A stretch of 64,000 nt of DNA from the sequence record OL631257.1. One strand, given 5' to 3'. Source of the stretch: Escherichia phage ECCR664. The notes below the pieces were generated by a model that was not told where the DNA came from, ran no database searches, and saw nothing but the letters and a program-made list of their open reading frames with translations. This document shows positions 26,834-27,289 of this stretch, piece by piece. Made by a program: the position numbers and the translations under genes. Within the stretch, counting starts at the first letter, position 1. Every line of letters starts with the position of its first letter.

Positions 26834-27289
26834 TTATTTTAGATCTTCGGCCCAATCTAGTTTTAAGGGTTCTTTGTATTCACGGTCGAGAATAACCGGA
26901 ATAGCTACATCACCACTGAATGATAGTTGGCCAACGTTATATGATAACGTTATATGTGGAGTGTAGTCGTCGAAATCATGAGTAGCACCTAAAGCTCGTG
27001 CATACTGATGACGACATCTAAGATATTCGGAATCAAGAACTAAAACCAGTACAGCGCCGTCGTCAGTTTTCCATACCTCAAAGTGTCCTGATTCGGCAAT
27101 AGAATAACTACCACTAGACGTAGTATATGGTATGTTTACACGTGAATAACAAATTGTTGAATGAAGCTTTTCACGTGGTACTGGATTAGGAATTCTTAAT
27201 TTACGCTGGAGGTCTTCCAGCGCATCAAGTGTTAATTCTGAAAACTTAGCTGCGACGTAGAGGCCTTGTGAAAAGTCCTCAAATTTCAT
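26834..27289 (-). CDS. 57B: gp57B homolog (2H phosphoesterase; Acb1-type anti-CBASS nuclease in T4)
   Basis: 151 aa; two H-x-T/S motifs (LHSTIC and PHITLSY); gene order ipI-57B-57A-1 as in T4. Confidence 0.75.

Follow-up and report, generated by a model that had tools for sequence, protein, structure and literature searches.

Escherichia phage ECCR664 very probably encodes an intact Mosigvirus orthologue of the T4 anti-CBASS protein gp57B/Acb1

Does the small gene between ipI and 57A of Escherichia phage ECCR664 encode an anti-CBASS phosphodiesterase of the Acb1 type, or one of the other enzymes that are built around two H-x-T motifs? In the window, i.e., the whole stretch of 64,000 nucleotides from this phage that was analyzed here (OL631257.1), the ORF listing contains at this place an ATG-initiated reading frame of 151 codons on the minus strand (26834..27289; Table 1). 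The gene order ipI-57B-57A-1 is the same as in T4 and the product has nearly the length of T4 57B (151 versus 152 amino acids), in agreement with the preliminary description, which had proposed a positional and size equivalent of T4 57B and a likely Acb1-type protein. The Pfam profile Acb1 (PF23474) matches with 196.8 bits (cut-off 27; E 1.8e-58), whereby residues 8–149 of the protein cover profile positions 1–144 out of 144, and the alignment with T4 gp57B (NP_049750.1) is gapless with 85% identity (E 2e-102). The crystallized Acb1 of Erwinia phage FBB1 (PDB 7T26 and 7T27) is matched with an E-value of 7.9e-59 and 64% identity over residues 9–148, the alignment with 7T26_A comprising 140 residues and one single-residue gap. 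The fold assignment rests on this 64%-identical crystal structure, because a single-sequence AlphaFold2 model of the protein was unusable (mean pLDDT 38.6, pTM 0.29) and too poor for a fold search. A search of the protein against NCBIfam yielded no match, yet this library apparently lacks an Acb1 model, so the result is uninformative either way. Taken as a whole, we consider it very probable that the gene is an intact Mosigvirus orthologue of T4 gp57B/Acb1, to which the activity and the anti-CBASS role are assigned by homology.

Table 1. Positions of acb1, its functional motifs and the surrounding features in the window
Feature	Position	Strand	Basis or remark
acb1 (gene 57B orthologue), coding sequence	26834..27289	-	151 codons and TAA stop at 26834..26836
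First catalytic motif, H43-S44-T45 (CAT TCA ACA; in LHSTIC)	27155..27163	-	corresponds to T4 H44/T46, alignment columns
Second catalytic motif, H112-I113-T114 (CAT ATA ACG; in PHITLSY)	26948..26956	-	corresponds to T4 H113/T115, alignment columns
C-terminal lid, residues 144-151 (LDWAEDLK), including W146 (T4 W147)	26837..26860	-	alignment to T4
TAATG, 57A stop overlapping acb1 start	27287..27291	-	sequence read directly
T4-type late-promoter consensus TATAAATA, within gene 1 (candidate)	27873..27880	-	pattern search; 591 nt upstream of acb1 start
Sigma-70-like match TTTACA-17-TACTAT, TG extended, acb1-ipI spacer (weak lead)	26791..26819	-	consensus scan, 9/12 matches
ipI (internal protein I, nuclease inhibitor), first gene in the variable cassette downstream of acb1	26469..26756	-	Pfam PF11634 (IPI_T4), E 2.6e-49
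57A (tail-fiber assembly helper), upstream, same transcription unit (inferred)	27289..27519	-	PF17594 (GP57), E 5.9e-23; PHROG 1002
tRNA-Arg(tct)	24807..24883	-	ARAGORN, real tRNA
tRNA-Met(cat)	24890..24963		ARAGORN, real tRNA

The closest classified relatives of the window belong to Mosigvirus, the RB69-like group of Tevenvirinae. Phage Mizar encodes a 100% identical protein (XXL68586.1), which already bears the name "anti-CBASS Acb1-like protein" in GenBank and whose gene has the same flanking 57A and ipI. The two loci differ in that Mizar possesses an extra Ip7-like internal-protein gene (309 bp) beyond ipI that is absent from the window, and in that gene 1 is intact in Mizar but split in the window. 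The closest genome is that of phage phiEC1 (99.2% DNA identity over 2.3 kb), where translation of an unannotated gene gives the identical protein once more; between both acb1 genes there is a single substitution, which is synonymous, and there are zero indels. Across 50,697 phage records, acb1 homologues were found in 1,489, with 1,462 of them full length, from phages of Escherichia, Klebsiella, Shigella, Acinetobacter, Vibrio, Aeromonas and other hosts. The Acb1 family and this exact protein are already known and nothing is new at this locus, as was anticipated by the preliminary description, which had presented the function as a known one: it has been characterized in T4, and the identical protein has been named in GenBank.

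The T4 protein serves as the functional reference for the individual residues. Hobbs et al. (2022; PMC9117128) traced the degradation of cGAMP in infected cells to T4 57B. Its HxT/HxT tetrad consists of H44, T46, H113 and T115, Y12, W74, F107 and W147 are the stacking aromatics, E141 contacts the adenine N6, and residues 145–152 form a lid closing over the ligand (PMC9117128). All nine functional residues of T4 (Y12, H44, T46, W74, F107, H113, T115, E141 and W147) are identical in the window protein (9/9), in which the numbering equals that of T4 minus one; T4 has an ATGATG context and one extra N-terminal methionine where the window has TAATG. Both H-x-T/S motifs that had been noticed earlier in LHSTIC and PHITLSY are indeed present, as H43-S44-T45 and H112-I113-T114, respectively. 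The preliminary description had named histidines lying off the Acb1 active site as the observation that would speak against it; in the alignment, H43, T45, H112 and T114 share their columns with H44, T46, H113 and T115 of T4 and with the corresponding residues of FBB1. The counterparts of the stacking aromatics are Y11, W73, F106 and W146, and that of the adenine contact is E140. The lid reads LDWAEDLK instead of LDWADDLK in T4, with one D-to-E change and the same C-terminus.

This pattern extends to more distant homologues. In FBB1 Acb1, of which both an apo structure (7T26) and a complex with 3'3'-cGAMP (7T27) are available, both HxT motifs, the tyrosine, the glutamate and the lid tryptophan are identical to those of the window protein, whereas W73 is replaced by F and F106 by Y, which are conservative aromatic swaps, and one residue is inserted after position 79. 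Conservation was assessed in a set of 40 sequences comprising the window, T4, FBB1 and 37 IMG/VR loci (32 of the sequences are distinct, with identities as low as 63%). Both histidines, both threonines, the tyrosine, the glutamate and the lid tryptophan are invariant in this set, as is the isoleucine of the second motif, while the two other aromatics show only W/F and F/Y variation. The number of motifs was rejected as independent support, because 13.6% of 20,000 shuffles with the composition of the Acb1 protein itself carry at least two H-x-[ST] triplets. What exceeds chance is the full-length homology to T4 gp57B (E 2e-102) in combination with the alignment of the motifs with the T4 catalytic tetrad.

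Based on this homology, Acb1 of the window would be a small, metal-independent 2H phosphoesterase that is made by the phage during infection. Its predicted ligands are the CBASS cyclic di- and trinucleotides with at least one adenosine (3'3'-cGAMP, cUA, cAAA and cAAG); cGG, cA4 and 3'2'-cGAMP are not cleaved by T4 Acb1 (PMC9117128). Y11, W73, F106 and W146 would line the U-shaped pocket for the substrate, E140 would read the adenine N6, and the lid at the C-terminus would shut over the bound substrate. The ligand would then be strained such that its 2'-OH attacks the 3'-5' bond, and the tetrad H43/T45/H112/T114 would cut this bond 3' of the adenosine via a 2',3'-cyclic phosphate intermediate. 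Upon release of a linear 3'-phosphate product, the CBASS effectors would not be activated and abortive infection would not ensue. The experiments on T4 and FBB1 are the basis for this predicted activity, for the range of substrates and for the proposed effect on CBASS. In the case of T4, activity-guided fractionation led to 57B as responsible for cGAMP cleavage, and deletion of the gene abolished this cleavage in lysates. The T4 acb1 deletion mutant suffers a more than 300-fold plating loss on CBASS hosts, with normal growth in other respects, and a HIDEN-SEQ transposon screen found T4 acb1 to be conditionally essential on a CBASS host.

The same motifs would also suit an RNA enzyme of the LigT type (a 2'-5' RNA ligase or else a 2',3'-cyclic phosphodiesterase) that acts on RNA ends, e.g., in tRNA repair beside the phage tRNA cluster. 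The two-H-x-T architecture is common to all 2H enzymes, and the LigT/2'-5' RNA ligase branch of the 2H phosphoesterase superfamily (PF13563) resembles Acb1 in having two H-x-T/S motifs, in its metal independence and in its route via a 2',3'-cyclic phosphate; Acb1 differs as a Pfam family of its own with a pocket for cyclic oligonucleotides. Existing names lean toward RNA as well, since PHROG 755 carries the description 'RNA ligase' and RefSeq calls T4 57B and many homologues 'RNA ligase' or 'RNA 2',3'-cyclic phosphodiesterase'; 'RNA ligase', however, is an inherited name and not a tested function. The Pfam family 2_5_RNA_ligase2 (PF13563) does match the window protein weakly (E 0.012), but only over residues 69–131 and with 16.1 bits, which is below the cut-off of 27, compared to 196.8 bits for Acb1. 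Moreover, the residues for base stacking of the cyclic dinucleotide and the adenine-reading glutamate are kept, and both the fractionation and the deletion in T4 tie the gene to cGAMP cleavage. We therefore regard an RNA enzyme as highly improbable.

A different objection accepts the orthology with Acb1 and concerns the range of substrates. At 23 of its 151 positions the window protein differs from T4 gp57B, and these substitutions might make it cut other signals or spare decoy nucleotides. Such spared decoys would be those of systems sensing the presence of anti-CBASS proteins. An arms race that puts pressure on cyclic-nucleotide specificity is documented, and the changes include position 42 beside the catalytic histidine and D148E in the lid. 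None of the 23, however, falls on a functionally defined residue, and all residues known to contact the substrate are identical to those of T4. The nucleotide identity between both genes is only 75%, and T4 belongs to Tequatrovirus whereas the genome of the window belongs to Mosigvirus. FBB1 Acb1, with 64% identity, binds and hydrolyzes 3'3'-cGAMP in the crystal. The gene is under purifying selection with an intact reading frame: the dN/dS ratio is 0.066 in comparison with T4 (dN 0.13, pS 0.70, dS ~2, with saturated synonymous sites) and 0.06–0.14 in the other comparisons, and the value of 0.07 for the whole gene comes without a sign of diversifying selection. A substrate range unlike that of T4 is thus very unlikely in our view, and an Acb1 that resembles the T4 enzyme remains the preferred reading.

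The similarity to T4 Acb1, which besides the position between 57A and ipI comprises the tetrad, the four aromatics, the glutamate and the lid, also includes putative signals for expression. The stop codon of 57A overlaps with the start codon of acb1, as in T4, and this AGAATAATG junction between 57A and acb1 is also found in most related loci; the TAATG overlap suggests coupled translation of both genes. Within gene 1, the sequence TATAAATA is a candidate late promoter for 57A-acb1. In T4, Mizar and eight other loci, the late-promoter consensus occurs between -587 and -605, hence at the same offset in T4 as in the window. We infer from these elements that 57A and acb1 would be expressed as one unit with middle/late timing. 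The T4 57B/acb1 transcripts are predominantly middle/late, and Acb1 activity appears from about 15 min of T4 infection. The preliminary description had placed the gene in an early region rich in anti-defense functions. The anti-defense part finds support in the neighboring ipI, a member of a nuclease inhibitor family, but the designation 'early' is not supported in view of the middle/late timing of T4 acb1 and the late-promoter consensus upstream.

The spacer between acb1 and ipI contains a sigma-70-like match (Table 1), which we treat as a weak lead because the promoter scan of 26300..28400 returned 9 sites versus 7.3 ± 2.9 in shuffles and thus did not exceed background. In the same spacer (26757..26833, minus strand), an inverted repeat GGATGAT(N11)ATCATCC overlaps with this match and could act as a regulated promoter or form an RNA hairpin in front of ipI. 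Rfam gave no RNA family within or beside acb1.

The two flanks of acb1 behave differently across the related loci. On the upstream side, 57A precedes acb1 in 30 out of 37 loci. On the downstream side, ipI of the window has 86% identity to T4 ipI (tblastn) and was expected to be conserved, yet a homologue was found in only one of the 37 loci, because the slot is a variable internal-protein cassette. This hypervariable cassette extends from acb1 to a trna.4-like membrane gene (26420..26830 in the window; approximately 2950–3900 in loci L003–L039) and holds zero to three unrelated small ORFs, which all begin with MKT(Y/F)xEF(I/L)xE, the capsid-targeting leader of internal proteins. Its content is limited to ipI in the window, whereas Mizar and ATK47 also contain an Ip7-like gene, and loci L003 and L004, whose Acb1 is identical, contain no cassette ORFs. 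The T4 gene acb2 (vs.4) was sought in the 106–116 kb stretch of T4 and is not located there.

The quality of the sequence deserves attention when the neighboring genes are interpreted. Gene 1, encoding the dNMP kinase (27524..28255, minus strand), is broken up into two ORFs (27524..27763 and 27769..28164), which differ in frame. The breaks are contractions of A/T runs, by one base at 27775 and by two bases at 28240, which sum up to three. A real pseudogene was considered and rejected in favor of sequencing error, since neither run is contracted in Mizar or phiEC1, and the split is most likely such an error. Over positions 1..64000, the comparison with phiEC1 reveals 108 indels of one or two bases, of which 89 are deletions in the window; 69 lie in homopolymer runs of at least four bases, nearly all of A/T (e.g., A5 to A4 or T6 to T5). 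This pattern is systematic homopolymer under-calling and not biology. Many genes of the window will consequently look frameshifted or truncated, and ORF-based findings elsewhere in it need to be checked against a clean relative.

The tRNA calls in the region were inspected as well. A 94-nt 'tRNA-Stop' with anticodon tta that ARAGORN called at 24183..24276 (minus strand) is an artefact, being absent from the phiEC1 locus and without an Rfam tRNA match; the called segment contains a homopolymer deletion (24241). The two calls listed in Table 1 are real tRNAs. ARAGORN predicts Arg(tct) both in the window and in phiEC1, whereas a tRNA-Asn is annotated at the equivalent position of Mizar (L001, 1811..1882); the difference lies either in the tRNA itself or in its annotation.

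The names under which Acb1 orthologues are deposited lag behind. Most records label them 'RNA ligase', 'hypothetical protein' or 'RNA 2',3'-cyclic phosphodiesterase', and the same applies to 57B in the T4 RefSeq record NC_000866 (L002, 2953..3411) and to PHROG 755. The labels 'RNA ligase' and 'hypothetical protein' are out of date since the characterization in 2022, and it is in annotation that the value of the present analysis lies. Its discovery value is small, as the family, which forms a separate Pfam entry, has been known together with its structure since 2022 and is present in approximately 1,490 sequenced phage genomes. For the phage itself, possession of Acb1 would mean that it disarms CBASS systems using adenosine-containing cyclic di- or trinucleotides, which bears on the prediction of its host range.
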